Positions 2,234-36,172 of a DNA stretch of 45,329 bases are shown in pieces; position 1 is the first letter of the stretch, and the number at the start of each line of letters is the position of its first letter. Made by a program: the position numbers and the translations under genes. A model generated the notes under the pieces. It was given only the letters and a program-made list of their open reading frames with translations. It was not told the DNA's origin and did not search any database. The stretch comes from a virus (Duplodnaviria; Heunggongvirae; Uroviricota; Caudoviricetes): the IMG/VR virus record IMGVR_UViG_2541047734_000008, positions 1-45,329 of that record. One strand, given 5' to 3'.

Positions 2234-2318
2234 GTAAGCGTAAACTGACCGCCGTATGTAGCCATCAGACGAGAATTGGTAACTTAGACGCCCATCTGAT
2301 ATAGACGGACATCTAAGT

Positions 2319-2744: not shown

Positions 2745-3091
2745 TCTCACTCCCATCAGGTACCCGTATCTGGCTCGTTGCCGGCGTTACCGATATGCGT
2801 AAATCCTTCAACGGACTGGGAGAACAGGTACAACATGTGCTGAATGATAATCCCTTCTCCGGTCACCTGTTTATCTTCCGTGGCCGACGGGGTGACACCG
2901 TCAAAATTCTTTGGGCTGATGCTGATGGTCTGTGCCTGTTCACCAAACGCCTGGAGGAAGGCCAGTTTATCTGGCCTGCGGTACGTGACGGCAAGGTATC
3001 CATTACCCGCTCGCAACTGGCAATGCTCCTCGATAAGCTGGACTGGCGTCAGCCAAAAACATCCAGCCGTAACTCACTGACAATGTTGTAA
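2741..3091 (+). CDS. IS66-family TnpB (orf2)
   Basis: 116 aa, overlaps orf1 stop (ATGA); MISLPSGTRIWLVAGVTDMRKSFNGL... typical IS66 Orf2. Confidence 0.8.
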   Translation: MISLPSGTRIWLVAGVTDMRKSFNGLGEQVQHVLNDNPFSGHLFIFRGRRGDTVKILWADADGLCLFTKRLEEGQFIWPAVRDGKVSITRSQLAMLLDKLDWRQPKTSSRNSLTML

Positions 3092-3121
3092 AAAACTCCT
3101 GACCGCATTATAAAAACGGTC

Positions 3122-4735
3122 ATGAGTCAGAAATACCTCATTCGCATCGCAGAGCTGGAAAGGTTGCTCTCTGAGCAGGCTGAAGCCCTCCGTCAGAAAG
3201 ACCAGCAACTGAGTCTGGTTGAAGAGACGGAAGCCTTCCTGCGCTCTGCACTGACACGTGCCGAAGAAAAGATCGAAGAAGATGAACGGGAAATAGAACA
3301 TCTGCGGGCTCAGATAGAAAAACTGCGCCGGATGCTGTTCGGTACCCGTTCTGAAAAACTGCGTCGTGAAGTTGAACTGGCTGAGGCTCTGCTGAAACAA
3401 CGTGAACAGGACAGCGATCGTTACAGTGGGCGGGAAGACGATCCTCAGGTTCCCCGCCAGTTGCGACAGTCGCGCCATCGTCGTCCGTTACCGGCACACC
3501 TTCCCCGTGAAATACACCGCCTGGAGCCAGAAGAAAGCTGTTGCCCGGAGTGTGGCGGTGAGCTGGATTATCTGGGGGAAGTCAGCGCTGAACAGCTGGA
3601 ACTGGTGAGCAGTGCCCTGAAAGTGATCCGCACAGAACGGGTAAAAAAAGCCTGTACAAAATGTGACTGTATTGTTGAAGCACCGGCGCCGTCCCGCCCG
3701 ATAGAGCGTGGTATCGCGGGCCCCGGATTACTTGCCCGCGTGTTAACGGGAAAATACTGCGAACATCTGCCACTGTATCGTCAGAGTGAAATCTTTGCCC
3801 GCCAGGGTGTCGAACTGAGCCGGGCCTTACTCTCCAACTGGGTTGACGCGTGCTGCCAGTTAATGACACCGGTGAATGATGCCCTGTACCGTTATGTAAT
3901 GAACACCCGCAAGGTTCACACTGATGACACACCGGTAAAGGTACTGGCACCGGGTCAGAAAAAGGCGAAAACAGGGCGTATCTGGACGTATGTCCGGGAT
4001 GATCGCAATGTGGGTTCGTCATCTCCTCCAGCGGTCTGGTTCGCGTACTCGCCGAACCGGCAGGGGAAACACCCGGAGCAACACCTCCGCCCCTTCCGGG
4101 GTATCCTGCAGGCGGATGCGTTCACAGGTTACGACAGGTTGTTCAGTGCAGAACGTGAAGGTGGTGCACTGACAGAAGTTGCGTGCTGGGCCCATGCCCG
4201 GCGAAAAATCCACGATGTATACATCAGCAGCAAAAGTGCGACGGCAGAAGAAGCCCTGAAGCGAATCAGTGAACTGTACGCCATCGAGGATGAAATACGG
4301 GGATTACCGGAGTCAGAGCGTCTTGCCGTCAGGCAGCAGCGAAGCAAAGTGTTACTGACGTCGCTGCATGAATGGATGGTGGAGAAGAATGGTACGCTGT
4401 CGAAAAAATCCAGACTGGGCGAAGCGTTCAGCTATGTACTGAATCAGTGGGATGCCCTCTGTTATTACAGTGATGACGGTCTGGCGGAGGCGGATAATAA
4501 TGCTGCGGAAAGAGCGCTTCGTGCAGTCTGTCTCGGAAAGAAAAACTTTATGTTCTTTGGCAGCGATCACGGCGGCGAGCGTGGAGCACTGTTGTACGGG
4601 CTGATCGGCACCTGCCGTCTGAACGGTATCGATCCGGAAGCGTATCTGCGCCATATCCTGAGCGTACTGCCGGAATGGCCTTCCAACCGAGTTGATGAAC
4701 TCCTGCCATGGAACGTAGTACTCACCAATAAATAA
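3122..4735 (+). CDS. IS66-family transposase (orf3)
   Basis: 537 aa with N-terminal coiled-coil/leucine-zipper, CxxC...CxxC zinc motif and DDE-type core; third ORF of the triad. Confidence 0.85.
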   Translation: MSQKYLIRIAELERLLSEQAEALRQKDQQLSLVEETEAFLRSALTRAEEKIEEDEREIEHLRAQIEKLRRMLFGTRSEKLRREVELAEALLKQREQDSDRYSGREDDPQVPRQLRQSRHRRPLPAHLPREIHRLEPEESCCPECGGELDYLGEVSAEQLELVSSALKVIRTERVKKACTKCDCIVEAPAPSRPIERGIAGPGLLARVLTGKYCEHLPLYRQSEIFARQGVELSRALLSNWVDACCQLMTPVNDALYRYVMNTRKVHTDDTPVKVLAPGQKKAKTGRIWTYVRDDRNVGSSSPPAVWFAYSPNRQGKHPEQHLRPFRGILQADAFTGYDRLFSAEREGGALTEVACWAHARRKIHDVYISSKSATAEEALKRISELYAIEDEIRGLPESERLAVRQQRSKVLLTSLHEWMVEKNGTLSKKSRLGEAFSYVLNQWDALCYYSDDGLAEADNNAAERALRAVCLGKKNFMFFGSDHGGERGALLYGLIGTCRLNGIDPEAYLRHILSVLPEWPSNRVDELLPWNVVLTNK

Positions 4736-4765
4736 GCGTCAATACGGTGCTCCGTTGACGCTTAC

Positions 4766-4773
4766 GGAGATAT
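4766..4773. repeat. 8-bp target-site duplication GGAGATAT (right copy)
   Basis: Identical 8-mer immediately outside the right IS terminus. Confidence 0.8.
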
Positions 4774-15633: not shown

Positions 15634-16370
15634 TTAAAGCGAGCGGATGCCCACGCTGATCAGATGTTCAGACAGATCCAGCTCCGGTTCACCACCATTG
15701 ACCAGCATCCGGCTCATTGCTGTAAACATCGCAACAGGGCCGTCGATTTTGGCTTCCAGCGTGGATTTATTCGGGAAGATATTGTCGTTTTTGTCCGGTT
15801 TTACCGTAACGTTAGACATCATCCAGTTCATGACCGGATGATTGCTGTGATGGAAACGCCCGGCATAGACCAGTGATTCCGTTTCCTTCATGGCCTCTGA
15901 CAGATTGCGAACCGTCTGCGGAACCTCCACCAGCGGTATCCCTTCTTCAGCCAGTGCCAGGCTGAACTGCATCGCGCTCCACGGGTCAAATCCCAGTTCC
16001 CTGAGGTTTTCACCACCAATCCATTCCAGTAAGTCACTTTTTATCTGAGCATGATCGATAACATCACCATCCGTCAGAATCAGCTTATCCATCTCCGCCC
16101 ACTTCCGGTAAAGTTCTGCCTGCTGCCGCGAGCATCGTTCCAGCCGTCCTTCCGGAAGCCAGAATTTAAAATCGGCATGAACATGCCCGTTATCCGTTCG
16201 CCAGAGTTTTGCCGCCGCACAGATATCAATCTTATGAGCAAGGTCAACGCCGACCCACATGGGATACGTTTTCAGCTCATGTCGTGGGGCAATGTATTCG
16301 CACTTCTCCCACTTAATCATGTCCATCCAGGCAGACTCTGCTGTTACCCACACATTCATGTGTTTGGTAA
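15634..16370 (-). pseudogene. Prophage terminase large subunit, C-terminal (nuclease-domain) fragment
   Basis: 241 aa ORF (..NVWVTAESAWMD..VGVDLAHKIDICAA..) aligns to the last ~243 aa of the intact island TerL; in-frame upstream codons ..NILTKH end at a stop inside island DNA; no ATPase domain. Confidence 0.85.
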
Positions 16371-16651
16371 GAATATTTCAAGTTTTTTAAAATCACCTGT
16401 ATATCAATCATTTAACATGAAAAAACAGTCTTTATAAATCATCGAGCAATACACAGCGCAATACACGTATCTGTATTGTTTTAATGCTGATACACACCGT
16501 TTTTTGATACAGTGATTCGACCTACCATCGCGAAGCATTTTTTATTTCTTGTGTGTAACAATCTGACGAGGTGAGCACTCAAAGAGATAAGAGGCAGTAG
16601 AAATTTCGATCCCCCCTGAATGCAATTTTTCGTATATATATACAAAACAGT

Positions 16652-16810
16652 GCGGGTTATGCGGGTTAGCGGGTTATCTTCGCGTGCTAAGTATTTTTTA
16701 CTCTTTAATATCAATACGTTAAAAAACAACGTATCTAAATATCAGCCAGAATGTAACCCGCAAGACATTCAAAATAACCCGCAAACACCACTCAAATAAC
16801 CCGCAAAAAC
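16652..16810. repeat. Repeat cluster near island left end: GCGGGTTA x3 tandem (16652..16677) and ATAACCCGCAA x3 in opposite orientation spaced ~22 bp (16755..16810), flanking an AT-rich core
   Basis: Directly visible 8-11 bp repeats in a ~520 bp noncoding stretch downstream of island terL. Confidence 0.7.
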
Positions 16811-16885
16811 ATCCCTGAAAGTGGGTGCCGATAATACTGAAAATTTATTCCATTAAATGAGCATTATCCTCTCTCATCCATTCCG

Positions 16886-18547
16886 TTACACACCATCAAA
16901 CGTCGCAAGCCGCTCTTTGTGGTTGTCGCTCATATCAAATGCAAATTCTTCATGCTCTGCCTGGAATGTGCCAAACGCCATCAGCGCCGCAACGCTCGGG
17001 TCTATCTTGTTGGATGATTTTTTCTTGTTCGGCTTGATATTGGCGTTCGCGTCACTCTGCATCACAACATTACTCATTGACCAGGCCAGCACCGGATCAC
17101 CACGATGCACAATCACCTTCCGGTTAACAAAAACTTCGAACGATTTCGCCGCCGGACTGAAACGAAGGTACGTTTGCGGGAACGGCTCCACCTCAAATCC
17201 TGCGCCCTGTAGCTGCGTCCTCAGGTGCGTGGCGTTCCATGTATCGAAACCCACCAGCCTGATATTGAAATTCTCTGCATCCGCCATGATGTCATCACGG
17301 ATACGGTCATAATCAATGCAGTCACCCGGTGTTGTGCGTATCCAGCCCGCCTTTACCCACTGGCGATAGATGGCGCGGTTTTTATTGGCGGGGTTCTGTA
17401 GCTGAAATTCCGGCAGATAGTGACGGGAAACCAGCATAATCTTTTTACCGACCGGAAAGGCATAGCACACGCTGGAAATATCGCTGGTTGATGATAAGTC
17501 CAGCCCCGCGTAGCACTCCTGCCCGTATAAATCCGCCTCCGCGAACGTTCCGGCGCACTCCGCCCATGCACCGTTACCCATCCACGGCGTGGCCCCCTGA
17601 CACCAGATATTGAATCGCTTGGTGAGCATTTCCACCCACTGCGACGGAATACCCCGCGCTTTCTGGATGGTTGAGGCCAGTTTTTCACGATCGACGGAAA
17701 CATCGATATTGGGATTCGCCTTTATCCACATCGCCGGATCGTCAACCTCGCTTTCATCATCCAGCTCGTAAATCAGCACGAACATGGATTCGTTCACCTC
17801 TTCACCATCCAGTATCTGGCAGCAATAGTCGTAGTGTTGTTTACAGGCTGAAACAACGTTGCTCCCCGATGTGGTGATGGCAAATAATAACCCCTCCGGA
17901 CGCGCCCCCATTCCCAGTTCAAGCGCGGAATAAACCCCGTTGTCAGGGTGCAGGTGATATTCATCCACAATGGCAAGACTCGGGTTTGTACCTTCAATGG
18001 TTGCCGCTTTTGCTGCCAGTGGCTTTAACAGGCTGTTGGTTTTCGGGTGTATCACCTTGTGTGCCTGAATATTTACCCGCTTTCGCAACGGTCGGGATAA
18101 AAGGCACATCTGACACGCATCATCAAACACGATCCGCGCCTGATCACGACTCACGGCGGCGGTGTAAATATCCTGCTGCCCGTTTTCCATAACCAGAAAC
18201 CAGTTAGCCAGGATAGCGGCGACCGTGGATTTGGCATTTTTTCGCGGCACTTCAATGAATGCGCTGGTGTATTTGCGCCGTCCGGTGGCCTTAACCTTAA
18301 AGCCCAGGATGCACGCAAAGGCGAACTGCTGCCACGGCTCCAGCTCAATGGGGCTACCGCGCATTGCGCCTTTTACGTGCGGACACACCCTGGAAAAGGC
18401 AATAAACCGCTCCACGACCTCCGGATCGAACGTGTAAAGGGGGTTTTCAAGGTCAGAAAAATACCGTTTAACGGCCTGTTTCAGTCGTTTACAGGCCGTA
18501 ATTTTGCCGTTTTTTACGCCTTCTGCGTACTCATGCCAGGCGGTCAA
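16886..18547 (-). CDS. Island terminase large subunit (intact)
   Basis: 553 aa; ATPase N-domain and nuclease C-domain; homologous along its length to the two prophage terL fragments. Confidence 0.9.
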   Translation of the reverse strand: MTAWHEYAEGVKNGKITACKRLKQAVKRYFSDLENPLYTFDPEVVERFIAFSRVCPHVKGAMRGSPIELEPWQQFAFACILGFKVKATGRRKYTSAFIEVPRKNAKSTVAAILANWFLVMENGQQDIYTAAVSRDQARIVFDDACQMCLLSRPLRKRVNIQAHKVIHPKTNSLLKPLAAKAATIEGTNPSLAIVDEYHLHPDNGVYSALELGMGARPEGLLFAITTSGSNVVSACKQHYDYCCQILDGEEVNESMFVLIYELDDESEVDDPAMWIKANPNIDVSVDREKLASTIQKARGIPSQWVEMLTKRFNIWCQGATPWMGNGAWAECAGTFAEADLYGQECYAGLDLSSTSDISSVCYAFPVGKKIMLVSRHYLPEFQLQNPANKNRAIYRQWVKAGWIRTTPGDCIDYDRIRDDIMADAENFNIRLVGFDTWNATHLRTQLQGAGFEVEPFPQTYLRFSPAAKSFEVFVNRKVIVHRGDPVLAWSMSNVVMQSDANANIKPNKKKSSNKIDPSVAALMAFGTFQAEHEEFAFDMSDNHKERLATFDGV

Positions 18548-18890
18548 GCTCGTCCTCTTCCTCTGTTTCCGGTGGATTTCTGCGGCGACTTACCGGGTCA
18601 AAACCCAGCAAAGAAGCCATTTTGATCATTATTCTTTCCGCGTCAGCCTTTGCGCTCAGGGCGGGGTTTCTGCTCTCGCTGCCCTGACTGTTAACAATGC
18701 TGAACCCGCGCGTGGCAAGGTCTTCGACGGCTTTGCGGTATATGGAGTAGTTAACGCAATACAGCTCCAGATTGCTCCAGTCGGCGGGGGTAAGGTCTTC
18801 CCGTCCGGAAAGCTGGCGCGATTTTTCCTTCCACTGCCTGACCGCGATTTCATCCAGGTAAGCGGGGGCTTTTGGTGGTCTTGCCATGTT
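18531..18890 (-). CDS. Island terminase small subunit (P27 family)
   Basis: Start placed at MARPPKAPAYLDE.. (compare prophage TerS MSGPPKTPP..); the ORF track's longer start at 19028 adds non-protein-like residues. Confidence 0.75.
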   Translation of the reverse strand, partial: NMARPPKAPAYLDEIAVRQWKEKSRQLSGREDLTPADWSNLELYCVNYSIYRKAVEDLATRGFSIVNSQGSESRNPALSAKADAERIMIKMASLLGFDPVSRRRNPPETEEEDELDRLA

Positions 18891-19175
18891 CTTTTTTCGC
18901 CCAATTATTTTCAAAAAAAATCCCGTGCACAAAAATTTGAGGAGGCGGTCGGTGTCCGGCAGGGACGGTTTCGTCCTGAAAACCTCCCCCACCCCCTCTG
19001 ACAGCCTCACCAGCGATTGCGAAAACATTCCATGACCTCGCGGTCACGGTCGGTTAATCGCTTCGCTGTGGTGCGTTCTGTGCGCCCTGTCCTGTTAGCT
19101 TTGTGCCCTGTCTCCTGTGTCTTCCATAAGTCACGCTGCCTTATCAGTCCACGTATCAGCCTGTTTTGCTCCTGT

Positions 19176-19616
19176 TCAGTCATCATCGCCATACATCCAG
19201 TCGTTACGATGTGCCGCCCGTTCTTCCTGCTCGCGATACATACCCGCCTTACGGTTCGCTTTCGTGGCTGGATCTTCCCGTGTCGTCTTACGGTTGTGGC
19301 ACGTCTGGCACAATGCCTGGTGGTTCCACTCAGGCCAGAAGAGAACATCACCGCCGCCATTGATGGGAATGATGTGATCCACCACAAGAGCTGGCGTATA
19401 AATCCCCTTAGCCAGACAACGCACGCATAACGGGTTTTTGCTCAGGTACAGGGCGCGGTATTTGTCCCACTGTCGGGAATACCCGCGCGCGCGGCGGTGT
19501 CCCCGTCTGGCATCCTCTGCACGCCATGCAGCCCGCCTGTGCTCTTCACACTTGCCGGACTTCACGCGCTTATTACAGCCCGGCTCAGTGCATCGCCTTA
19601 ATGGTTGCCACGGCAT
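19176..19616 (-). CDS. Island HNH endonuclease
   Basis: 146 aa, Cys-rich N-terminus, ..VDHIIPINGGGDV...NHQALCQTCHNRKT.. HNH motif; located upstream of terS. Confidence 0.8.
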   Translation of the reverse strand: MPWQPLRRCTEPGCNKRVKSGKCEEHRRAAWRAEDARRGHRRARGYSRQWDKYRALYLSKNPLCVRCLAKGIYTPALVVDHIIPINGGGDVLFWPEWNHQALCQTCHNRKTTREDPATKANRKAGMYREQEERAAHRNDWMYGDDD

Positions 19617-19915
19617 CAGTACACCCCCACATCACGATAAACCGACCAGAGCGCAGAAATAGCCATAGGCAGTTCAGACTGCTCCACTGGTGAAACTGCT
19701 TCCCTGTTCTCGTACAGGAAAGCGATGTACATCAGGCAACCAACACGCATTGCCGGGGTAAATTCCAGCCCGTCTTCAAAACGTTTCCCGATATGCTTCT
19801 GGCAGGCTTCCAGCGCCGCATCGGTATACATTTTCAGAAGTTCGCCTTCTCCGGAAAAGTCATCAAGGCGAAGATGTGCCCTGACCTCATCAGGTGTAAT
19901 TTTTTCTTCACTCAT
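19616..19915 (-). CDS. Island head-tail connector protein (gp6-like)
   Basis: Start at MSEEKITPDEVRAHLRLDD..; gp6-like. Confidence 0.6.
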   Translation of the reverse strand: MSEEKITPDEVRAHLRLDDFSGEGELLKMYTDAALEACQKHIGKRFEDGLEFTPAMRVGCLMYIAFLYENREAVSPVEQSELPMAISALWSVYRDVGVY

Positions 19916-21122
19916 CTTTTTCACCTTTAATTTCCACCGTCTGCTTCCATGCCTGGCTGAATTCGTCGCCACCTTCGCGCGGCGGCATCCCCTCACGTTC
20001 GCGGGCTTCGTTCGGATTCATGATCCCGTTCTTAATCCCTTTCTCATACGTGGCGTAACGCTCGGTAGGGGTGGCGCGCAGTAAATCGGCTGAATCAAAC
20101 TCAACCAGATAACGGGTACCAGGTACGGGAGAAGCCACCAGCAAAGCGGCCTTGATTTGCTGTTCGAAGTTCGCCAGCCACGGACGCATTGTCATAGTCA
20201 GAAACGCGCGGCTTGCCTCACTGAAATTGCTGTAGGTGCTGTTGCTGTATTCCTGAAGAAAAATCGGCGACACGTTGAACATACGGGCAATGTCTTCAAT
20301 GGAGAAGCGACGGGAGGCCAGCCATTCCGCATCCTGGTTACTCATCCCCAGTTGCCTGTAATCCATGCCCCCTTCAAGGATTGGCGTTTTTCCGGCATTT
20401 TTCGCCCCCTTATAGCGTTCCAGAGCATCTAATGCCTGTTTACCTTTCACGCCGTCCAGCCATTCGCCTGACGTGATAATCCCTGCCGCCATCATGCCAT
20501 CTTTCATAATGCTGGCTCCGTGGCGCTGTTGAGCAAGGCCAAGCCCCAGCGCCTCACGGCAAATCGTGACAGGGGAGCGCCCCAGAAAGCCATCATCCGA
20601 GGCATAGCGGAGATGCAGAACTTCTTCCTGTAAATACGTGCGTACCGTTCCTGTATAGGGTTCGGTGATGGTATAGCGGTATTTGTGTGCGCCTGTGCGT
20701 TCCGGTACAACACACCCCGGCGCATAAGGATGAAGTGATTTTGGCTGACCGTCCCGCCCCCACTCAATAACCGCATAGGCGTTACCGTTCAGCAGGCAGT
20801 GACGCATCATTGTGCGTTTAAACTGGTAAGGTGTCTGGCACGAATTAGGCTGCTCATTCAGCAGAATATCGACCGGGTGACTGTCCAGCCATTCCCGCGC
20901 CTCCCTGCCCTTGTCATTGCGTACCAGATACAGATAACACGGCATCGTGGCCACCGCCTCAGCGATGACAGAAACCGCGTTCATCACAGCAGGCAATGAT
21001 TCAGCCGTCCCGGCAGAAACATATTCTCCGGATCCGGTATTCGGTACGCCGGACAGCGCCAGAAAATCATCAATGGACAGGTTACGCAGATCGCTTTTTT
21101 TACGACTAAAAGGCCACCACAT
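19908..21122 (-). CDS. Island portal protein
   Basis: About 405 aa from MWWPFSRKKSD..; HK97-type portal, homologous in places to the prophage portal (..RPMILEMGLDW.. versus ..TPILEGGMDY..). Confidence 0.85.
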   Translation of the reverse strand: MWWPFSRKKSDLRNLSIDDFLALSGVPNTGSGEYVSAGTAESLPAVMNAVSVIAEAVATMPCYLYLVRNDKGREAREWLDSHPVDILLNEQPNSCQTPYQFKRTMMRHCLLNGNAYAVIEWGRDGQPKSLHPYAPGCVVPERTGAHKYRYTITEPYTGTVRTYLQEEVLHLRYASDDGFLGRSPVTICREALGLGLAQQRHGASIMKDGMMAAGIITSGEWLDGVKGKQALDALERYKGAKNAGKTPILEGGMDYRQLGMSNQDAEWLASRRFSIEDIARMFNVSPIFLQEYSNSTYSNFSEASRAFLTMTMRPWLANFEQQIKAALLVASPVPGTRYLVEFDSADLLRATPTERYATYEKGIKNGIMNPNEAREREGMPPREGGDEFSQAWKQTVEIKGEKDE

Positions 21123-21123
21123 A

Positions 21124-21684
21124 TCACAACCCCGCCAGTTCAGCCCAGCGATGACGATTATTTCCTGTCGGGCGTAATTCAGGGTGCTGTGCAAACAACG
21201 AACGGTGGGCAATCTCCACGCCGGATTCGGGATAAGCAGGCATCGACGTTATCGTGATTTCACGGAGTTCTGCGGCGGTAACAGTGCGCAGATACGGTTT
21301 TTGCGCGATATTCCACTCTTCGCATAATGCGCGAAAGCCAAAGCTCATTCCTGTAATGTCGCCACGCTCCACCAGCGTAAGCACATCTTTTCCAAGCTGG
21401 GTATCAGGCGGTGTCAGTTCAAAACGTAGCCCGGTGTTGTCCTCAGTCAGTACCAGTGTTCCGGATTTGGTGCGCCCCAGCAGTCGGGTATAGTCATGCT
21501 CATACAGGCAGCGCACATCATTACCCGCCGCCAGATAGTCAGCAAAAGCCCCCGGCGTGAACTGTTCGCGGAATTCGTCCCAGATAATTTCTGAAAGGCT
21601 GTTCCAGCGAACGGCATAACCCACCAGTTTTTTATCGCTGGCGGTCAGTTCAGATGTACGGATTTCAAAATCGGTATTTTGCAT
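21124..21684 (-). CDS. Island prohead protease
   Basis: Start at MQNTDFEIRTSEL.. (Met 73 of track ORF), ..KKLVGYAVRWNSLSE.. Confidence 0.8.
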   Translation of the reverse strand: MQNTDFEIRTSELTASDKKLVGYAVRWNSLSEIIWDEFREQFTPGAFADYLAAGNDVRCLYEHDYTRLLGRTKSGTLVLTEDNTGLRFELTPPDTQLGKDVLTLVERGDITGMSFGFRALCEEWNIAQKPYLRTVTAAELREITITSMPAYPESGVEIAHRSLFAQHPELRPTGNNRHRWAELAGL

Positions 21685-21733
21685 CGGTGTACTCCATAAA
21701 GCTGAAAAAGGAGGCCGAAGCCCCCTTTGCTCA

Positions 21734-22879
21734 TTACTTGCCAGCCTGAATTTCCAGAATCTTGATGGCGTTCGAATCCACCACACCACCGCCCAGATAT
21801 TTCTGGGTATAGATGTTAATGAATCCAGGTTCGCTGAAATCCGGACGGGTACGCGTACCGGTTTCATGGTCAACGATGAAATAACCGCGCTTAAAGTCAC
21901 CTACTGCAATCACACCGTCCGGCATAAATTCCAGATATTCAACCGGAAGCCCCAGCAGAGAATCAGGATCACCAGCCTGTAAACGATCGCGCCAGATGTA
22001 ATCACCAGTGGCATTTTTCAGTTTTTGTGCGGAGGCGGCTGTATTTGAGTTCATCACCCATACAGCTTTTTTGCGGTACTTATTGCGCAGCGTAAATTTC
22101 AGGTCAATCAGCATGTCGGCGCTGAGACTGCCAGTAACTTTTTTCGTCTGGAGCGTACCGAAAGGACGGGTTTTGTCGTTATCCGCAGTGCGCGGAAAAG
22201 CCAGGAAACCTTTAGCTTTTTTCTCGCCATCACCGGAAACCAGATCCGTTTCTTCGGTATCAACGAAAGTGTCGCCAATTTCAGAAGATAACCAGCTCAT
22301 AATATCGACTTCGGAAAAATCGATAATTTCCTGAGTGGTTTTTGGGTAAGCGTAGATCGGATACAGGCGGATACTGACTTCATTCAGTTTTGGGGTTGCC
22401 GTCTGGTTACGTGTAGTGCCTTCTTCACCGTGTTCAACGACCGCGCCCCCGGCAGAAACCAGTTGCTTAAATTCATTGCTGTGAATGGTTTTAACAGTAC
22501 AGATTTTACGCATCACCGATTCATCAGAAAGCTGACGCATAATTTCTCTGTTCAGTTCCGGGATAACCGTATAACCACCATCAGCCGGGACACTGCCGGA
22601 CAGGTTGCGGGTTTCCCCGGTCAGAATGTAAGAGCGCAGTTCGTCTTTGGTTATTTTCTCTTCGACGGAAACACCAGGCTGGTTACGTTCTTCATCAGCC
22701 ACAGATTCGAGGCGGGAAATTTCTGTGTCGAGGGAATCGGCTTTTGCACGCAGTTCATCAAACTGTTTGCCCTCGTCATCGTTCAGGCTGCGGTTTTCAC
22801 TGTCGGCTTTTTCCAGCAGGGATCGCATCTGGTTTTTCAGGGCGGTTTTTTGCTGGCGGAGTTCGATTAATTTCTTCAT
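21734..22879 (-). CDS. Island major capsid protein (HK97 family)
   Basis: 381 aa; coiled-coil delta domain then ..KGFLAFPRTADNDKTRPFGTLQ..GYFIVDHETGTR..; parallels the prophage capsid. Confidence 0.9.
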   Translation of the reverse strand: MKKLIELRQQKTALKNQMRSLLEKADSENRSLNDDEGKQFDELRAKADSLDTEISRLESVADEERNQPGVSVEEKITKDELRSYILTGETRNLSGSVPADGGYTVIPELNREIMRQLSDESVMRKICTVKTIHSNEFKQLVSAGGAVVEHGEEGTTRNQTATPKLNEVSIRLYPIYAYPKTTQEIIDFSEVDIMSWLSSEIGDTFVDTEETDLVSGDGEKKAKGFLAFPRTADNDKTRPFGTLQTKKVTGSLSADMLIDLKFTLRNKYRKKAVWVMNSNTAASAQKLKNATGDYIWRDRLQAGDPDSLLGLPVEYLEFMPDGVIAVGDFKRGYFIVDHETGTRTRPDFSEPGFINIYTQKYLGGGVVDSNAIKILEIQAGK

Positions 22880-23152
22880 GAAGGTTTTCTCGTATTGGTT
22901 AAGATTCAGGACGTGAAACCAACACGGAGGGAGCGCCGCCCGACACTCTCGGCATCTCGCAGATCAACCCGGCATCGCGCAGGGGTCAGGCGGCATTGTG
23001 GCGGCTCACGTCTGAGTGCCACACGCCAACATATACATAAAAATCAGTATGTAAACATCAGCCAGAATCACCGAACAACCTGGAACAACCACGAACAAAT
23101 AATTTACAAAACCTGAAAAAAAGACCCGGGAAAAATCCGGGCCTTTATCGCT

Positions 23153-23401
23153 TTATTGTTTCACTGGATCCCGCATTCTGCGTCTTATTTTCCACAGATA
23201 TTCGATCATCGCTTCCACCTGCTCACGGTTGGTTGCGAAAATTTCCCCGGTCAGTGAGCTACGCAGAAAATCATGATGATCCACAACAAACAACGCATCG
23301 GAAGAAAGCAGACGGCGATATTTTTTTGCTGTCGTGGTTTCCAGATCATCAAAACCATGAAACTTTTTATGTTGCTGGACTTCTTCAAATGTCACTGGCA
23401 T
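23153..23401 (-). CDS. Island hypothetical protein
   Basis: 82 aa ORF in operon orientation. Confidence 0.4.
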   Translation of the reverse strand: MPVTFEEVQQHKKFHGFDDLETTTAKKYRRLLSSDALFVVDHHDFLRSSLTGEIFATNREQVEAMIEYLWKIRRRMRDPVKQ

Positions 23402-23934
23402 GTATCCCCCTTTGCTGCCCGGCGCTGGCGCTTGTGCTTCTCATTCAGCGCCATCAGCCGCGTTTCTGCCTCCTGCTGTTCCTGTGGTGTCACTTCCCCA
23501 CATGGCTGGCCTTTCAGGTCGTAGCGTACCCCACCAGCAACCAGGGCGCGGTAATAGCGCGGAGACTGCGCATAAGATGCCAGCGTCGCACGTAATGCCC
23601 CCGGCCCGAATGCCAGCCCCCTGACGGCGAGATCCTGCATCAGGTCGTCGAATATTCCCACCTTAAGCGGCTTCGGTGCTTCCCTGTTGAATAAGTCAGG
23701 CCACATCTCAGTGAGGCGGTTAACGCGCCTGCGGTTTTTGCGCTGGCGTTTGGTCATATGCCGCCACGGTGTCACCCCTGTGGGCTGCCCTTTGCGGCTC
23801 TGCTGTGCGTTCTGATTGCCGGGTATCACTTTATGCGCCGATGTGGTTTTATCCCGCTCTTGCGCCGCCTGCGTCGTTTTCTGCGGCGTGCCGTAAATGC
23901 CTTTCGGTTTTCGGTTAATGGTCAGCTTTGTCAT
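23392..23934 (-). CDS. ProQ/FinO-domain RNA-binding protein (island)
   Basis: 180 aa, basic N-terminus, ..LTEMWPDLFNREAPKPLKVGIFDDLMQDL...RATLASYAQSPRYYRALVAGGVRYDLKGQP.. resembles the FinO/ProQ fold signature. Confidence 0.6.
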   Translation of the reverse strand: MTKLTINRKPKGIYGTPQKTTQAAQERDKTTSAHKVIPGNQNAQQSRKGQPTGVTPWRHMTKRQRKNRRRVNRLTEMWPDLFNREAPKPLKVGIFDDLMQDLAVRGLAFGPGALRATLASYAQSPRYYRALVAGGVRYDLKGQPCGEVTPQEQQEAETRLMALNEKHKRQRRAAKGDTCQ

Positions 23935-23970
23935 GCCTTCCCCTGTAATTACTCTGTTCGCTGTTGTGAA

Positions 23971-24396
23971 TTAAAACGGTATGTTATCCCCGTACAGGTC
24001 ATCGTGCTGGCCTGTCTGTTGTTTTGCCCTGTTCAGTGCGTCAGTAGCTTGGCTCTGCTGGCCTTTTTTGCCGCCCGGTCGCGCCGTTCGCGCACTGATT
24101 ACGCTGTCTGCGATGACCTGCCAGCCCTGCCGCGTTTCGCCGTTCTGGCCTGTCCACTGGCTCACCTGCATGTTACCCGCCACGCTCACCAGTTCGCCTT
24201 TGTGGTGCTTTGCCAGTGCGTCGGCCTGTCTGCCAAACGCCAGGACGGATAACCACATCGTCGCCGTTCCGTCATCTGCCTGGCTGCACGGCAGGGGAAC
24301 CGCCATACTCGCCATCGCCATTTGTGTCCCCTTGCTGGTGGTCTTTAACTGCGGGTCAGCCACCAGCCGCCCGTAAGCCGCTATCTGTGCTGTCAT
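23971..24396 (-). CDS. Single-stranded DNA-binding protein (island)
   Basis: 141 aa OB-fold-like with acidic C-terminal tail ..DDLYGDNIPF. Confidence 0.75.
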   Translation of the reverse strand: MTAQIAAYGRLVADPQLKTTSKGTQMAMASMAVPLPCSQADDGTATMWLSVLAFGRQADALAKHHKGELVSVAGNMQVSQWTGQNGETRQGWQVIADSVISARTARPGGKKGQQSQATDALNRAKQQTGQHDDLYGDNIPF

Positions 24397-24644
24397 GCTG
24401 TCTGCTCTCCGGTTTTAACGTTGATGGTTGTCACCTGTTCCGCTTCGGCAATCTCCCGCTCTGTCAGCGTGGCAAAATTTGCCGCCGCCGTGGTCATGAA
24501 TGCGCTTATCAGTTCGGGATGTGCTTTCGCGTATCCTTCTCCGGCATGGCGGTCTATTGTTCTGATTGCCACCTTTAAGGCATGCTCTGTCATGTCTAAT
24601 GCGCGATATTTTGGCGCTGTCTTATCTCTGGTTTTTCTGGTCAT
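24393..24644 (-). CDS. Island hypothetical protein
   Basis: 83 aa; overlaps ssb start. Confidence 0.4.
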   Translation of the reverse strand: MTRKTRDKTAPKYRALDMTEHALKVAIRTIDRHAGEGYAKAHPELISAFMTTAAANFATLTEREIAEAEQVTTINVKTGEQTA

Positions 24645-24648
24645 TCCT

Positions 24649-24848
24649 CACTGCTCCCCACTTTTACTACCCACTTTTTGAAATTACCCAACGTCTCCCC
24701 ACTTCTTTTTTTTGTGATTCTAACGTGATGTTTTTCAATGTATTTTTTATTCCCCACTTTTTGGGGTATATACAGGTGGGAAAGTGGGGAATCGCGTTTC
24801 AATTTTGTTAAATTCCCCACACTCCCCACTTTTACTACCCACTTTTTA
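24649..24848. repeat. Iteron cluster / candidate island replication origin next to rep
   Basis: TCCCCACTTTTACTACCCACTTTTT at 24649 and again at 24822; additional CCCCACTT copies in both orientations; AT-rich centre. Confidence 0.7.
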
Positions 24849-26261
24849 CAGTGGGCGCACGTCATCACCGTCAATAGCAATAACGCCATCACCTTCCAGC
24901 TTGTACAGCCAGCGCCGGAAGTGTTTCATCTCATACCCCAGCTTTTTCATATCATCGCGCAACAACGGAATTGTGCATTTATCGCCGCGCTGTGTGCGTG
25001 AACGGATACAGCCCCATAGCGCGGCATGATTCTCCGTCTTGTTCCCGGCTTCCTCGATGCGCTCCAGTTCAACAGGTGGGCGCGGCTTATCCACAACCAC
25101 CAGCGACGTGATTAACTCCCCGTCAGTGTCGGTAAAAAGCTCTACCACGCGTAAATCATATGCAGCCTCTTTCAGTTCCTCCGCGTCCTTCATTTTGGTA
25201 CAGGAGATAACCAGGGCTTCACTGTCCGCACCTTCACGGCGAATACGGTATTCAGCGTCCAGAGATGCACGGAATGCACTGGAACCACGCGCTCCCTTTG
25301 TTTCATCCTTGCCGGAATGGTGAACCACCAGCACCGTGGCCCCTGTGCGTCGTTTCAGTTCGTCACATCCACGGATAAACGCCCCCATATCCCGCGCGTC
25401 ATTTTCATCATTACCGCCAAAACACCGCGCCAGCGTATCCAGAATAATCATGCGTACCGGTTTACCCGTTTCCCTTTCAACCTGGCGGGAAGCGATGACC
25501 ATTTCATCGACATCAAGCGGGACTGCCGGAAAAATCGGGCGGTTTACCAGGTACAGATTTTCCACCCGTTTATCATTAACGATTTCCCATGCCTTGATAC
25601 GGCGGGGGACACCAATGCCACCTTCACCGACAACATACATCACCGAACCATGCGCCACCCTGCGGCCTCCCCAGTGGCGACCCGTGGCAACATGACACGC
25701 CCAGGAACACGCGAGGAACGATTTATAGGAACCGCTCGCGCCGTATGTGCTGCACAATGAATTAGCCGGAATCACGCCCTTAACGACATAATCAAGCTGT
25801 GTGTCGTATCCTGCAGATCCAATACTCATTGGTAGCGTGGTTTTTCGCTGGCTGTATTGCTCGTCAGTAAGTATTTCCCCGCGCTCTGCCTGTTCGCGGA
25901 TCCGTTGCAGGTAGTCGTGCCAGTTCTCCAGCTTCTGGTTGTGCATTCCCTCAGGGTAATAATTCGCATCCCGTACACCTGCCGCCGCCAGCTTTTGCCC
26001 GATAGCATTAATATTTGACGGCTTGATGTGGCCTGCCTTGTACAGCCGGACACAATAGCGACCATCGTCGATAATTTTCAGGTCTGCCAGTTCGTCAAGC
26101 TGGCTGTCTCCAAGCCATACAGGCGGAACATTGTCGCCAGCAAGTCGCCCGTCCTGCTCCTGCCATTGTTTCGCGTGCGCCCAGGCATCACTACCCGCAA
26201 AAATAATGACTTCGGTCATTTTGTCGTGCGGCTGTTTTTTTAAGTTCGGTGCCAGTTTCAT
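24846..26261 (-). CDS. Island replication initiator: primase/helicase-type Rep (RecA-like AAA ATPase)
   Basis: 471 aa; Walker A-like GASGSYKSF, Walker B MIILDTL; sits beside iterons as PICI pri-rep genes do. Confidence 0.7.
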   Translation of the reverse strand: MKLAPNLKKQPHDKMTEVIIFAGSDAWAHAKQWQEQDGRLAGDNVPPVWLGDSQLDELADLKIIDDGRYCVRLYKAGHIKPSNINAIGQKLAAAGVRDANYYPEGMHNQKLENWHDYLQRIREQAERGEILTDEQYSQRKTTLPMSIGSAGYDTQLDYVVKGVIPANSLCSTYGASGSYKSFLACSWACHVATGRHWGGRRVAHGSVMYVVGEGGIGVPRRIKAWEIVNDKRVENLYLVNRPIFPAVPLDVDEMVIASRQVERETGKPVRMIILDTLARCFGGNDENDARDMGAFIRGCDELKRRTGATVLVVHHSGKDETKGARGSSAFRASLDAEYRIRREGADSEALVISCTKMKDAEELKEAAYDLRVVELFTDTDGELITSLVVVDKPRPPVELERIEEAGNKTENHAALWGCIRSRTQRGDKCTIPLLRDDMKKLGYEMKHFRRWLYKLEGDGVIAIDGDDVRPL

Positions 26262-26557
26262 TTTTTCCCCCTGAATCCGTTAAGCATTTTTCTTATGGCC
26301 TGAATATTTGCCCGTGCCTTCTCTTTGCTGGTGGGCTGATTGCGCGGCGCGGTCTGTACCAGGGAAAAATCACGCCGGAACTGATAAACAGGCATCACAC
26401 AGTCATAGCCGTACCCATCACGGCGGTAAATAACGCACCGTCCCGCCACGCTTTTAATCGTTACCGTGCCGCCATAGTTATCCCGGAAAATATCGCCGGG
26501 GCGGATTTCAGGCCGAACGGAGCCGCTGGCAGTAAAGCCAGAATTTTTCTGTTTCAT
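26258..26557 (-). CDS. Island hypothetical protein
   Basis: 99 aa ORF, operon context. Confidence 0.4.
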   Translation of the reverse strand: MKQKNSGFTASGSVRPEIRPGDIFRDNYGGTVTIKSVAGRCVIYRRDGYGYDCVMPVYQFRRDFSLVQTAPRNQPTSKEKARANIQAIRKMLNGFRGKK

Positions 26558-26562
26558 GGTTT

Positions 26563-26772
26563 TTATTCCTCTGCGCGGGCCTTGTTGTGTATTTCCATAA
26601 CCGCGTTTAATTCATCAATAACCGGGGTTAACAGAGTGCTGAAAGCAGAAAATAAATCCCCCCCCTGTTCGGCATGAACTTCGGTTAATTTAATTAATAC
26701 TGCTTTCATTTCCAGTGCCCGGTTTAATGCATTCTCAGAATGAATAAGAACATCGAAAGGGATTTTATCCAT
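26563..26772 (-). CDS. Island hypothetical protein
   Basis: 69 aa ORF. Confidence 0.35.
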   Translation of the reverse strand: MDKIPFDVLIHSENALNRALEMKAVLIKLTEVHAEQGGDLFSAFSTLLTPVIDELNAVMEIHNKARAEE

Positions 26773-27025
26773 GGCTTACATCCTCCGTGAATTTTCTTCT
26801 GTACCGTGCCTCTGCCACATATTCCGCATAGTCCGACGCAATATTGAGAATATCGCTACCCGTTCCTGAATGTTCGGCGGTTTCCAGTAAAAAACTTGCA
26901 GCTTTTACCATGTCAGCAACACATAACAGCGCAATATCTGTATCTTCCGGTGCGCCATCAAATTCCTGTTTCAGGGCATTAAAACGATCATCACGCATAA
27001 CCCCCCCCATTTTCACAATCAGCAA
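26765..27025 (-). CDS. Island hypothetical protein
   Basis: 86 aa ORF. Confidence 0.35.
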   Translation of the reverse strand: MLIVKMGGVMRDDRFNALKQEFDGAPEDTDIALLCVADMVKAASFLLETAEHSGTGSDILNIASDYAEYVAEARYRRKFTEDVSHG

Positions 27026-27230
27026 TTAGGATGGCTTTAGCCTCATTCAGTGCCATATCAGCGGTAAGCTGTGCGTAGGCCAGCGAATGGGGGATTATTT
27101 CCCCTGTATATTCCGTCTCTCTGGTAATGTGTTTTTCTGCGGTTGCTGCCGTGCATGAAATATCAATCAGCGCGTGCATCAGCGTTTTGATGGCTTCGGC
27201 GGCTGCGTCCGGACGGGTGTTATTGCACAT
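26991..27230 (-). CDS. Island hypothetical protein
   Basis: 79 aa ORF. Confidence 0.35.
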   Translation of the reverse strand: MCNNTRPDAAAEAIKTLMHALIDISCTAATAEKHITRETEYTGEIIPHSLAYAQLTADMALNEAKAILIADCENGGGYA

Positions 27231-27426
27231 GGCGCACCCCCTGACGAATACGGGCGGCGAATACCATCACACAGCCAGCCGGGGATTGCTGGCGTGCTTC
27301 CTGTTCGCTGGTGGCCTCAATGGTAATCACGCGCGGTTGTGCCGTGCTCAGGGCGATAAAACGCCAGATATATTTATTCAGGTTGTGCGAGTCCCGCCCT
27401 TGCGGGTGTGTGGTATGATTTCTCAT
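27220..27426 (-). CDS. Island small protein, first gene of leftward operon
   Basis: 68 aa from MRNHTTHPQGRDSHNLNKYIWRFIALSTAQP..; GAGG RBS; the track's 358 aa extension upstream is not protein-like. Confidence 0.45.
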   Translation of the reverse strand: MRNHTTHPQGRDSHNLNKYIWRFIALSTAQPRVITIEATSEQEARQQSPAGCVMVFAARIRQGVRHVQ

Positions 27427-27502
27427 AGCTACCTCGATACTCTTGCTATCGTTGGTGGTTAGACGCCCTGCATGTGTTGCGAGCACTGCGGGGCGTTGCT
27501 TA

Positions 27503-27603
27503 ATTTGAGTGACAAAACTCAAACTGTGCGCACAGATTAAAATCATGTGTGCGCACATGTCAATACTTAACATCTCATTTTTTTTGCTGTATTGTGTGCG
27601 CCC
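27503..27603. promoter_or_regulatory. Divergent regulatory region with palindromic operators TGTGCGCACA
   Basis: TGTGCGCACA at 27525..27534 and 27549..27558 (within CATGTGTGCGCACATG), half-site GTGTGCGC at about 27593; lies between divergent gene starts 27426 and 27632. Confidence 0.55.
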
Positions 27604-27631
27604 ATAAAGTCCATTTAAGTGAGGTGCATCA

Positions 27632-27829
27632 ATGTCTAGCGGTAACACAAACAACAAATCAGCAAAGAAAAATATTCGATTCCCACATGAGCTTATAGAT
27701 GGGATTGATGCCAGCGTTGAACAAGAAAAATTAACTAATCCTAGTGCTAATTTTTCCGCATGGGTCTTAGATGCCTGTGGACGCAAATTAAAATATGAAC
27801 AGCGCCGGAAGGCCAAAGAATCAGAATAA
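27632..27829 (+). CDS. Small ribbon-helix-helix (Arc/MetJ-like) DNA-binding protein, candidate island regulator
   Basis: 65 aa; ..KKNIRFPHELIDGIDASVE..NFSAWVLDACGRKL.. beta-strand plus two helices pattern. Confidence 0.5.
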   Translation: MSSGNTNNKSAKKNIRFPHELIDGIDASVEQEKLTNPSANFSAWVLDACGRKLKYEQRRKAKESE

Positions 27830-27871
27830 TCACTATCAGCGCCGTGGTGTGAGTAACTACGGCGCATTGCT

Positions 27872-28060
27872 ATGCAGGACAACACAATGACCGATAAAGA
27901 ATTGACCAAAACATTATCACCGACACGGAAAAGACGGCGCAGAAAGATAGAGCATGAATCAGAAAGATTCGCACCTTGTTCGTTTGCTCTTGAGAAATTC
28001 CTTAAAGAGCGCAGGAAAAAGCTCTCGTTGCAAACCCTGGAACGAACCAAATCTGACTGA
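27872..28060 (+). CDS. Island hypothetical basic protein
   Basis: 62 aa ORF downstream of the RHH gene. Confidence 0.35.
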   Translation: MQDNTMTDKELTKTLSPTRKRRRRKIEHESERFAPCSFALEKFLKERRKKLSLQTLERTKSD

Positions 28061-28126
28061 TCACATTGCCCACCAGCCGCAAATGTGGCATTGTTGGTGA
28101 TGCTTTTGTTTTCCCTTGTTCCCACT

Positions 28127-28155
28127 GGCGACCCTTTTGCGGTCGCCTTTGTTTT
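28127..28155 (+). terminator. Intrinsic terminator
   Basis: GGCGACC-CTTTTGC-GGTCGCC followed by TTTGTTTT. Confidence 0.6.
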
Positions 28156-28251
28156 GCCTGTTATCCGGCAATAGTGGCGCTTCGTCACCTGTCTGATATA
28201 ATTCCACAGCTTATATTCATTTTTTGCGCAGTAGGTTAATTGTTCGCAAGG

Positions 28252-28282
28252 GCGCTCCGGCAACGGGGCGCTTTTTGTTTTT
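28252..28282 (+). terminator. Intrinsic terminator (GNRA-loop hairpin)
   Basis: GCGCTCCG-GCAA-CGGGGCGC followed by TTTTTGTTTTT. Confidence 0.6.
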
Positions 28283-28440
28283 ACCCACCAGCACAATAAA
28301 AATCTTCATTTTCCATTTTTGTAAAATTTCATGCTTTCCGGACGACTGGTCATATGTCATTTTTTAGCAGAAGATTTTGCCTTGCTGGTGGGTAGCTTCC
28401 CGGTCAACACGATGTACCGTATAATCAACACCGCGTGTGG

Positions 28441-29019
28441 TTACTGAATACGCTCACCAAAGTAAAACTCAGGCTGGTATTCACGTATCAGCCTTTTTTC
28501 TTCTTCCTCCAGCTCACGCTTTTTGCGCTTACATGCCTGTAGCTCCCTCCCCTTCTCACTGGCACTTATCTGGTATTGCTCTTTGCGGCGGGAAAAATCC
28601 TGTAATGCGCCCCACGGGATACCATAAGCCCCCGTTTTTCTGATACCCGGTATCACATTTCTGAATACCCAGTTACTGAAACGATGAGCAAATGTGCCAG
28701 GCGTCGTTGCTTTGCGGCTGCGGGCTATTAGTTTGTAGAAACCTGACTCGGAGATAATGCTCATATTCTGATTTCCTCCGGGGGTGTAAGTTAAATTTAC
28801 TCCCTTTTCGTCATCATCAAGCATCTGCAACGCCGTACGCGAATTGGTCAGTTCCAGCGCAGCACAAACATCCTTTGCAACAAACCACGGATCGCCGTTT
28901 AGATACACCACACGAACATCCACGCCATCAAAGCGCAGAACGACCAGATCACGAATATCACAGAATTTTTTCACATGACGTGCGTCACCCTTGCCCGTCA
29001 CGGCAATATTTTTATTCAT
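28441..29019 (-). CDS. Bro-N domain protein (antirepressor-like)
   Basis: 192 aa; ..FDGVDVRVVYLNGDPWFVAKDVCAALEL.. Bro-N signature. Confidence 0.7.
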   Translation of the reverse strand: MNKNIAVTGKGDARHVKKFCDIRDLVVLRFDGVDVRVVYLNGDPWFVAKDVCAALELTNSRTALQMLDDDEKGVNLTYTPGGNQNMSIISESGFYKLIARSRKATTPGTFAHRFSNWVFRNVIPGIRKTGAYGIPWGALQDFSRRKEQYQISASEKGRELQACKRKKRELEEEEKRLIREYQPEFYFGERIQ

Positions 29020-29076
29020 TGCTTTTTACCTCACATACAAAAAACCCCGCATTGCGTGGTGCGGGGTTGTCGGTAA

Positions 29077-29355
29077 TTACTTATTGGCGTTTTTGTATGG
29101 GCTGTTTACTTCCTTTACTCCTGGCGGATGCATAACCCACCAGAGCACATCAGAGAGCAACCAGGAAACAGACACTTTCCCTAAATGAGCACGAGCAGGA
29201 AATGCTCCCTCCTGTTCAAGTACCCAACGTCTGCTTCTTGAAAGCCCGGTACGATTGGCACACTCATGTTCGCGTATACGGCGATCATACGGTTCGCCAT
29301 GATCTTTCAGAATCTGAATGCGTTCTTCGGGTGTAGGATAAATAAATTTTTGCAT
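29077..29355 (-). CDS. AlpA-family transcriptional regulator (second copy)
   Basis: Start at MQKFIYPTPEE..; AlpA-type HTH. Confidence 0.6.
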   Translation of the reverse strand: MQKFIYPTPEERIQILKDHGEPYDRRIREHECANRTGLSRSRRWVLEQEGAFPARAHLGKVSVSWLLSDVLWWVMHPPGVKEVNSPYKNANK

Positions 29356-29418
29356 AAAAATATCACCTATAAAAAAACCCGCCAAAAGACGGGTTGATTA
29401 TATCTCATTTAATTTAGC

Positions 29419-29652
29419 TCAGGGTTTCCATTCACCTTTTACCCATTCCAGCACCTCAGATAAGCGCCAGACTTTTGTTTGTGGGCCAATACATATTTTT
29501 CGTGGAAATTTTCCTTCCTTTTCAAGTAACGATCTGTGTCTCCTGCCAAGAGCGGTTAACCATGCACATTCATCTTCCTTAATCATCCTGTCGATTGTTT
29601 CATCATTTTCAAGTTCTTCACGCGTAACTATTTGAATCATTACTGTCACCAC
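29419..29652 (-). CDS. AlpA-family transcriptional regulator
   Basis: 77 aa; ..KICIGPQTKVWRLSEVLEWVKG..; immediately downstream of int. Confidence 0.7.
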   Translation of the reverse strand: MVTVMIQIVTREELENDETIDRMIKEDECAWLTALGRRHRSLLEKEGKFPRKICIGPQTKVWRLSEVLEWVKGEWKP

Positions 29653-36016: not shown

Positions 36017-36092
<76 letters not shown>

Positions 36093-36094
36093 AT

Positions 36095-36171
<77 letters not shown>

Positions 36172-36172
36172 A

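Follow-up and report, generated by a model that had tools for sequence, protein, structure and literature searches.

The two copies of the heptamer TTGGTAA that lie on either side of 14.6 kb of the window (the whole 45,329-nt stretch of viral DNA analysed here) are very probably the attL and attR crossover overlaps of a helper-embedded PICI (HE-PICI), integrated by its own tyrosine integrase into the terL gene of a helper prophage. As far as can be read from the sequence, the insertion is base-precise, orientation-specific and site-specific, and it splits terL within the nuclease domain. Judged by its core, junctions, arm motif, co-orientation and order of gene zones, the island is a HE-PICI of site group A:Terminase_1:246, described by Tommasini, Mageeney & Williams (2023, NAR Genom Bioinform 5:lqad036; PMC10111431). 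The att pair, the terL site and the core are therefore already known, having been catalogued there in 2023.

The helper prophage and its split terL gene

The window holds an E. coli lambdoid prophage whose head and packaging genes are of the HK97/P27 type and whose late operon runs on the minus strand. From the list of ORFs and the RefSeq annotation of near-identical prophages, the helper genes follow one another, in the sense direction (from about 33,000 down to 1), as HNH, TerS, TerL, portal, protease, capsid, connectors and tail genes. The island lies between the two parts of terL:

31020-32040, minus strand: helper terL, N-terminal part, residues 1 to about 340 (ATPase domain and start of the nuclease domain)
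31013-31019, minus strand: core copy at the integrase-proximal junction, putative attL in terL sense orientation (alignments of empty sites start at 31013)
16371-31012, minus strand: inserted element, 14,642 bp (14,649 bp with one core)
16364-16370, minus strand: core copy at the distal junction, putative attR in terL sense orientation (junction alignments and comparison with strain FCI1)
15634-16363, minus strand: helper terL, C-terminal part, rest of the nuclease domain (ORF list, Pfam)

The N-terminal ORF (30847-32040) passes the core and 55 further, island-encoded codons before it meets a stop at 30847; in a related genome this part is annotated as 'terminase large subunit, missing C-terminus'. 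The C-terminal part is annotated in a related genome as 'TerL endonuclease subunit, missing N-terminus'; apart from an internal ATG at 16359 it lacks a start codon. In current Pfam the integration site falls at about position 60 of TerL_nuclease; the coordinate 246 of the published site name belongs to the old Terminase_1 model, which is now split into TerL_ATPase and TerL_nuclease. As in other HE-PICIs, the insertion splits a prophage late gene and its attP brings no replacement sequence, so that the helper terL is split and inactive for as long as the satellite is resident. The GC content is about 0.42 at both island ends, as against about 0.52-0.55.

Mapping of the junctions

A sequence-only reading of the window had pointed to a TTGGTAA at each island junction. 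On the plus strand of the whole window the heptamer occurs four times, where about 2.3-2.8 copies are expected by chance, so that its repetition in itself is no proof. Its position is decisive: the copies at 16364-16370 and 31013-31019 sit exactly at the two breakpoints of terL homology, and a 7-bp microhomology at two independently mapped breakpoints has a chance of about 1 in 16,000.

The breakpoints were located by aligning both junctions with four intact terL alleles. On each side the intact alleles are the same as the window through the core. In the N-terminal flank they depart from it at the base directly adjoining the heptamer; in the C-terminal flank they are identical up to the heptamer, and BLAST extends the alignment a few bases into a partly similar island end. 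Because the island ends mismatch terL at the base adjoining the core on both sides, the block of identity is exactly 7 bp long. When genomes with an empty site are aligned to the right junction, the alignment begins at query position 164, i.e. at window position 31013. The imperfect similarity of about 17 bp initially ascribed to the flanks is real but modest: it amounts to 12 of 15 bases with the core included, and past the core to 5 of 8 bases, confined to one side.

On the sense (minus) strand of terL the core reads TTACCAA and belongs to the codons TTT-ACC-AA(A/G), which specify F-T-K at residues 340-342 of the 585-aa TerL. The junction peptides are NFFTK followed by KVTS for the N fragment and NILTK followed by HMNVW for the C fragment; both read T-K, in agreement with the earlier placement of the core in the T-K codons of both fragments. 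Deleting 16371-31012 together with one core copy yields an uninterrupted, in-frame 585-aa TerL, reading ..RVNFFTKHMNVWV... The interpretation of the two heptamers as an attL/attR pair, also put forward from the letters, is thus upheld by the junction mapping: the crossover maps to the core, and excision of the island in silico restores TerL. The restored terL (attB) junction is predicted to contain ..AATTTTTTTACCAAACACATG.. / ..GTGAATTTTTTTACCAAACACATGAATGTG.., and the circular attP junction ..GAAATATTCTTACCAAGAAAGTAAC.. / ..GAAATATTCTTACCAAGAAAGTAACATC...

Uninterrupted copies of the site are common. The 276 nt of the reconstructed attB recur without a mismatch (100% identity) in annotated intact terL genes of many E. 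coli genomes, and a search with them gave 113 records with at least 99% identity and full-length matches in about 905 genomes. Intact versions of this helper terL occur in isolated or induced phages as well. The closest comparison is with E. coli strain FCI1 (NZ_CM172811.1), which carries the same prophage at 99.9-100% identity with the terL site empty. BLAST aligns the two in three collinear blocks, and they differ in two places only, the 14.6-kb island in terL and a 2.5-kb insertion at 2234-4765. As sequence data go, this is the nearest thing to a before-and-after pair that could be had. In the FCI1 copy of the prophage, int and the lysozyme gene are frameshifted.

Gene content of the island

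Pfam matches along the minus strand define the four zones of HE-PICIs, in their order: Integration (Int and AlpA), Bro, Replication and Late.

29618-30841, minus strand: tyrosine integrase, Arm-DNA-bind_3 and Phage_integrase (Pfam), co-oriented with terL
29419-29652, minus strand: AlpA-family protein, candidate excisionase/regulator, overlapping the end of int (Phage_AlpA, E = 1.9e-9)
29077-29385, minus strand: second AlpA-family protein (Phage_AlpA, E = 7.2e-10)
28441-29019, minus strand: Bro-N domain protein, the 'Bro zone' (Pfam)
23392-26557, minus strand: replication zone, whole
26258-26557, minus strand: DUF4222 (Pfam)
24846-26261, minus strand: RepA-like AAA_25 helicase (Pfam)
23971-24396, minus strand: SSB (Pfam)
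23392-23934, minus strand: ProQ/FinO protein (Pfam)
16886-22879, minus strand: late zone, whole
21734-22879, minus strand: major capsid (Pfam)
21124-21900, minus strand: prohead protease (Pfam)
19908-21212, minus strand: portal (Pfam)
19616-19996, minus strand: head-tail connector, weak match (E = 5.6e-4, below the Pfam cut-off)
19176-19616, minus strand: HNH (Pfam)
18531-19028, minus strand: TerS (Terminase_4; Pfam)
16886-18547, minus strand: the satellite's own TerL (Pfam)

The integrase ORF is full length, with both Pfam domains present, and int, alpA and the replication gene are all on the minus strand like terL, which is the co-orientation typical of HE-PICIs. A single connector/adaptor gene was recognised in the island. 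Neither tail nor lysis genes were found there in the Pfam scan of the minus-strand ORFs and the annotation of a related genome. With 31% identity to the helper TerL, the satellite TerL is not a recent duplicate of it. At the position homologous to the helper attB, its residues 308-310 (window 17600-17630), the satellite TerL has L-T-K, encoded by CTC-ACC-AAG, which contains TCACCAA; this heptamer is one base off the core and is the core variant seen most often in terL of other Enterobacterales, and its flanks are unrelated.

The island also has the gene set and the size of a capsid-forming PICI (cf-PICI), the weak connector match included. The prototype of that group is EcCIEDL933 (Alqurainy et al., preprint 10.1101/2022.09.08.507074). 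According to the preprint, proteobacterial cf-PICIs are, like the island, about 15 kb long, have the order int, alpA, rep, capsid-protease-portal-connector and hnh-terS-terL, and are devoid of tail genes.

The island was scanned for consensus promoters and terminators, which is weak evidence. Promoter-like sites were fewer than in shuffles; terminator-like hairpins follow each of the alpA genes on the same strand, and none is seen on the sense strand from the terL N-fragment to int.

The stretch 27100-28400 is the only one in the island that is apparently transcribed from the plus strand. It holds small ORFs, and in a related genome a YlcI/YnfO-family protein and two tiny hypothetical proteins are annotated there. 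Strong terminator-like hairpins on the plus strand lie at 28127-28147 and 28248-28275. A 358-aa ORF that overlaps this stretch on the minus strand has no Pfam match and is probably not real. Within the Bro zone, the stretch may serve as an accessory or immunity module. P4-like immunity RNAs have been reported in the Bro zones of some HE-PICIs (PMC10111431); Rfam searches for C4/isrK gave none in the island, even at E <= 1.

Architecture of attP

Two doubled arm-type motifs flank the core in the reconstructed attP:

16445-16467, minus strand: doubled motif cgTGTATTGCgctgTGTATTGCt, upstream arm of attP, 78-80 bp from the core
30860-30883, minus strand: second, co-oriented copy tgTGTATTGCactgTGTATTGCa, integrase-side arm, 131-133 bp from the core

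Nowhere else in the 45-kb window does the doubled TGTATTGC motif occur. Counted from the core centre, the upstream copy is 78-79 bp and the integrase-side copy 133 bp away. A doubled motif, tgTGTATTGCantgTGTATTGCa, has been described as unique to the attP of HE-PICIs, where it lies at 81+/-2 bp on the upstream side of the crossover and at 132+/-2 bp on the downstream side (PMC10111431). The island thus carries it twice and in the same orientation; the upstream spacing is at the edge of the published range, and both spacings depend on the base chosen as the centre. The doubled TGTATTGC motifs probably bind the arm domain of the integrase. The attP would then consist of the 7-bp overlap TTACCAA, weak inverted core sites and the two doubled TGTATTGC arm motifs.

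The contribution of the heptamer to attP is apparent from an off-target copy, Eco2384, inserted between DUF333 and yeaN, for which the published junctions are attR ..gaaatattcttaccaaGAAtattc.. and attL ..tttgcactGAAagtaac.. (PMC10111431). There, the island end keeps ttaccaa in a target that is without it, which indicates that the heptamer is a part of the attP of the element and not a duplication of its target. We infer that the Eco2384 junctions may stem from the same 7-bp overlap crossed with the mismatched secondary site ttgcact, the heteroduplex being resolved by replication. The right flank of this secondary site, GAATATTC, resembles the inverted left core arm of attP, GAAATATTC, which hints at a core-binding consensus.

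Comparison with the published site group

Supplementary File 1 of PMC10111431 lists E. coli elements under Eco....15.A_Terminase_1_246, about 14.6 kb in size and with the Att Identity ttaccaa; one example is JDFU02000001.1/974338-988982, of 14,645 bp. Since ttaccaa is the reverse complement of TTGGTAA, the core of the window is identical to the published one. When aligned with the published Eal37 rows, the window matches at 160 of 163 positions for attL and at 145 of 154 for attR, including 51 of 52 on the island side of attR. The differences are almost wholly in the terL flanks and the island-side arms are essentially identical. The window element and the published group share the host species, the target gene, the codon position, the att identity ttaccaa, the doubled TGTATTGC motif, the co-orientation and the four-zone gene order, and the sizes are about 14,645 bp (published) and 14,649 bp (here). 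Nothing of substance sets the two apart, save that the prophage of the present copy also has an IS66-family insertion in a tail gene.

A search of the accessible literature for follow-up work on HE-PICIs found no experimental study of the terL site. Among deposited phage genomes there were no close copies of the island, only matches of its head module at 75% identity; one of these, a 16.5-kb record labelled 'induced prophage', is in turn probably a satellite.

Use and conservation of the terL site

In a survey of 5,426 complete E. coli genomes, the integrase-side junction was present in 36, the distal junction in 35 and the empty site in about 905. All 36 copies of the island end are at the identical terL position. 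After these 36 full-length junction matches the ranking falls straight to empty sites, which means that the island end is at no other locus in the collection. Carriers of the junction include E. coli 042 and strain 2014C-3075. In IMG/VR, 17 integrases with 94-100% identity were found, again all at the same terL position; for five of them the junction core is TCACGAA in place of TTACCAA. A satellite with a TCACGAA junction core, Eal51, is also on record (PMC10111431).

The core falls in a TerL peptide, N-F-[F/L]-T-K-H-[M/L]-N, that is conserved across Enterobacterales and beyond. It is invariant or nearly so in 47 of the TerL loci of other species that cover the site, Zobellella and Oceanisphaera among them; three much more distant TerL homologues from Endozoicomonas are without it. 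The nucleotides of the core vary synonymously: intact E. coli alleles of terL have TTACCAA, TCACGAA or TCACAAA, and most alleles from outside E. coli have TCACCAA or other synonymous variants. With a conserved peptide and variable nucleotides, it appears that the integrase targets a protein-constrained stretch and that the identity of the core is not universal. The proposal that the integrase is directed to a conserved terL sequence is therefore supported, a tyrosine integrase adjoining the upstream junction and 36 of 36 island ends being at this site. The comparison with uninterrupted genes, proposed as a check, also comes out in its favour: the peptide is conserved and TTACCAA is found among intact E. 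coli alleles, with synonymous variation of the heptamer at the nucleotide level.

Two other loci are related to these observations. In a 43-kb contig (IMGVR_UViG_2718218031_000006, 1144-1500), an integrase that is 66% identical and likewise comes with the doubled TGTATTGC motif interrupts, about 62 codons in, the ORF next after gpA and gpW, which is where the portal gene stands in the lambda order; its attR might be recoverable. An insertion at the portal position agrees with the published claim that the clade hops between late genes (PMC10111431). A Morganella locus (L051) was considered as an independent insertion at the site, the terL match stopping near the same residue, but it was rejected: the match breaks off a few codons before the site, unrelated sequence and a GNAT gene come next, and there is neither an integrase nor a doubled motif, as in a deletion remnant and not as in a HE-PICI.

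Further features of the helper prophage

The second difference from FCI1 is a mobile element of another type:

2234-4765: IS66-family element, 2,532 bp, ends GTAAGCG...CGCTTAC, absent from FCI1

Its ORFs are on the plus strand (2319-2744, 2741-3091 and 3122-4735), and RefSeq calls an equivalent copy ISEc23-like. It has terminal inverted repeats and an 8-bp target duplication, GGAGATAT, at 2226-2233 and 4766-4773. The element interrupts a gpK-like C40-peptidase tail gene about 40 codons in, and probably leaves this helper tail-defective; the composite may consequently produce no tails of its own, and its satellite may have to rely on a different phage.

The interval from the Q antiterminator to the lysis genes holds a cluster of four tRNA genes (36018-36327, minus strand): Gly-TCC, Thr-TGT, Lys-TTT and one with a CAT anticodon, which is Met according to ARAGORN and Ile in the RefSeq annotation of FCI1. 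Rfam matches above the gathering score were obtained for the sok antitoxin RNA (39221-39396, minus strand), which adjoins a hokD-type toxin in the FCI1 annotation, and for the DicF RNA (44877-44928, plus strand); sok and DicF are typical cargo of Qin/Rac-like prophages. QueH (epoxyqueuosine reductase) is annotated in the prophage early region of FCI1.

The same HE-PICI is also present at the same terL site in E. coli 2014C-3075 (NZ_CP027447.1, 39797-41023), where the prophage is Stx1d-converting. There, the satellite may gate the production of Shiga-toxin phage particles.

Alternative explanations

A target-site duplication left by a transposition-like insertion, with no integrase core involved, would likewise give a single heptamer where the site is empty and one on each side of the island where it is occupied. 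The marks of a transposable element, i.e. a transposase, inverted repeats and variable sites, are however absent: the Pfam scan of the minus-strand ORFs of the island gave no transposase domain, its two ends match at 18 of 60 positions, which is the random level and not that of terminal inverted repeats, and the 36 E. coli copies and the 17 IMG/VR relatives are all at one terL position. It is a tyrosine integrase and AlpA that are encoded at one end of the island, the off-target island end retains ttaccaa where the target has none, and the genuine transposon of the window, of the IS66 family, does display an 8-bp duplication and terminal inverted repeats. A target duplication is thus barely credible. 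Very improbable too is the idea that the split terL is a decayed mosaic of two prophages, in which the 7-bp match would be an incidental microhomology and mobility would be lost. It would account for the phage head and packaging genes of the island, and there are signs of prophage decay (the IS66-family element in the tail gene, the frameshifts in int and lysozyme of FCI1); moreover, many published HE-PICI helpers look truncated or decayed, their satellites perhaps waiting for a new helper (PMC10111431). Against it stand the base-precise insertion, the restoration of the reading frame on removal, the full-length integrase ORF with its two domains, and the ordered Int/AlpA-Bro-Replication-Late layout of Gram-negative PICIs, devoid of tail and lysis genes. 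In addition, the same element, with junctions that are 95-100% identical, is found in different prophages and strains, including the Stx1d phage, and this requires repeated site-specific integration or mobility.

The function of the site is another matter. The surrounding prophage could be no more than a landing pad, the real helper being another phage and the disruption of terL having no regulatory role. Capsid-forming PICIs need only tails and can use several helpers (10.1101/2022.09.08.507074); in the present helper the gpK-like tail gene is broken by an IS, and off-target chromosomal copies of the element do exist (PMC10111431). We nevertheless judge a mere landing pad to be unlikely, given that late genes of prophages are the recurrent targets of the integrase clade, always in co-orientation (PMC10111431), and that the terL site is used 36 times out of 36 in our collection. 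The helper also has the HNH-TerS(P27)-TerL packaging type that cf-PICIs reportedly exploit (10.1101/2022.09.08.507074), and intact versions of its terL are found in isolated or induced phages.

Discussion

If, as is very probable, the TTGGTAA pair marks the ends of a HE-PICI integrated in its helper's terL, then a sequence of events can be proposed by analogy. The only HE-PICI that was induced experimentally is 11capE, at site E:Phage_cap_E:80 (PMC10111431): after mitomycin C the whole composite excised and replicated, precise excision of the satellite followed about an hour afterwards, and the experiment yielded no particles. According to the same paper, 11capE has the same integrase clade and attP architecture; the embedded, co-oriented configuration is also the same. 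It differs by its target, the major capsid gene, and by being a smaller element without terS, and 11capE is the one element in which excision was measured once the composite had replicated. In the present case, Q-dependent late transcription of the helper after induction would pass terS and the N-fragment of terL and enter int and alpA, which are co-oriented with them. From the course of 11capE induction and the layout of the genes, the satellite would then excise precisely, and only then would terL be restored. The satellite would package itself with its own capsid, HNH, TerS and TerL, and take only tails from the helper.

This arrangement differs in one respect from what is described for cf-PICIs. 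In E. coli these use six chromosomal attB sites (10.1101/2022.09.08.507074), whereas here the site is the helper's own terL, and the accessible text of the preprint makes no mention of integration inside a prophage gene. A link between the 'tail-stealing' lifestyle and the use of terL as attB, which we offer as a hypothesis, appears neither in PMC10111431 nor in the accessible text of the preprint (10.1101/2022.09.08.507074). Because the satellite is a complete cf-PICI with its own HNH, TerS and TerL, its residence in terL may be an interference device. In the embedded state, late transcription of the helper could still cross the co-oriented island and reach the tail genes; a helper deprived of its packaging motor would thus make tails for the satellite before it could package anything for itself, a situation that would be especially favourable to a tail-stealing satellite. 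That residence in terL is a hard-wired, cis-acting means of interference with the helper is a possibility that we advance tentatively.

A gene whose integrity is controlled by a resident element is not without precedent. Regulated gene integrity, or active lysogeny, is exemplified by phi10403S in comK of Listeria and by the skin element in sigK of Bacillus. There as here, the element splits a gene without providing a replacement; there, and presumably here, the gene is made whole again at a set moment, when the element excises precisely. The difference is that the interrupted gene here belongs to a prophage, and that the switch presumably serves the satellite and not the cell.

To conclude, the island adds no new kind of biology; it is a clean example of a published class, down to the sequence of the core. 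The configuration, in which a satellite inactivates the packaging gene of its helper until it excises, is nonetheless of general interest. It affects the annotation of prophages: the two halves of terL figure as pseudogenes in RefSeq, and the island can readily be taken for phage DNA. It also bears on the prediction of particle production by such prophages, Stx-converting ones like that of strain 2014C-3075 included.
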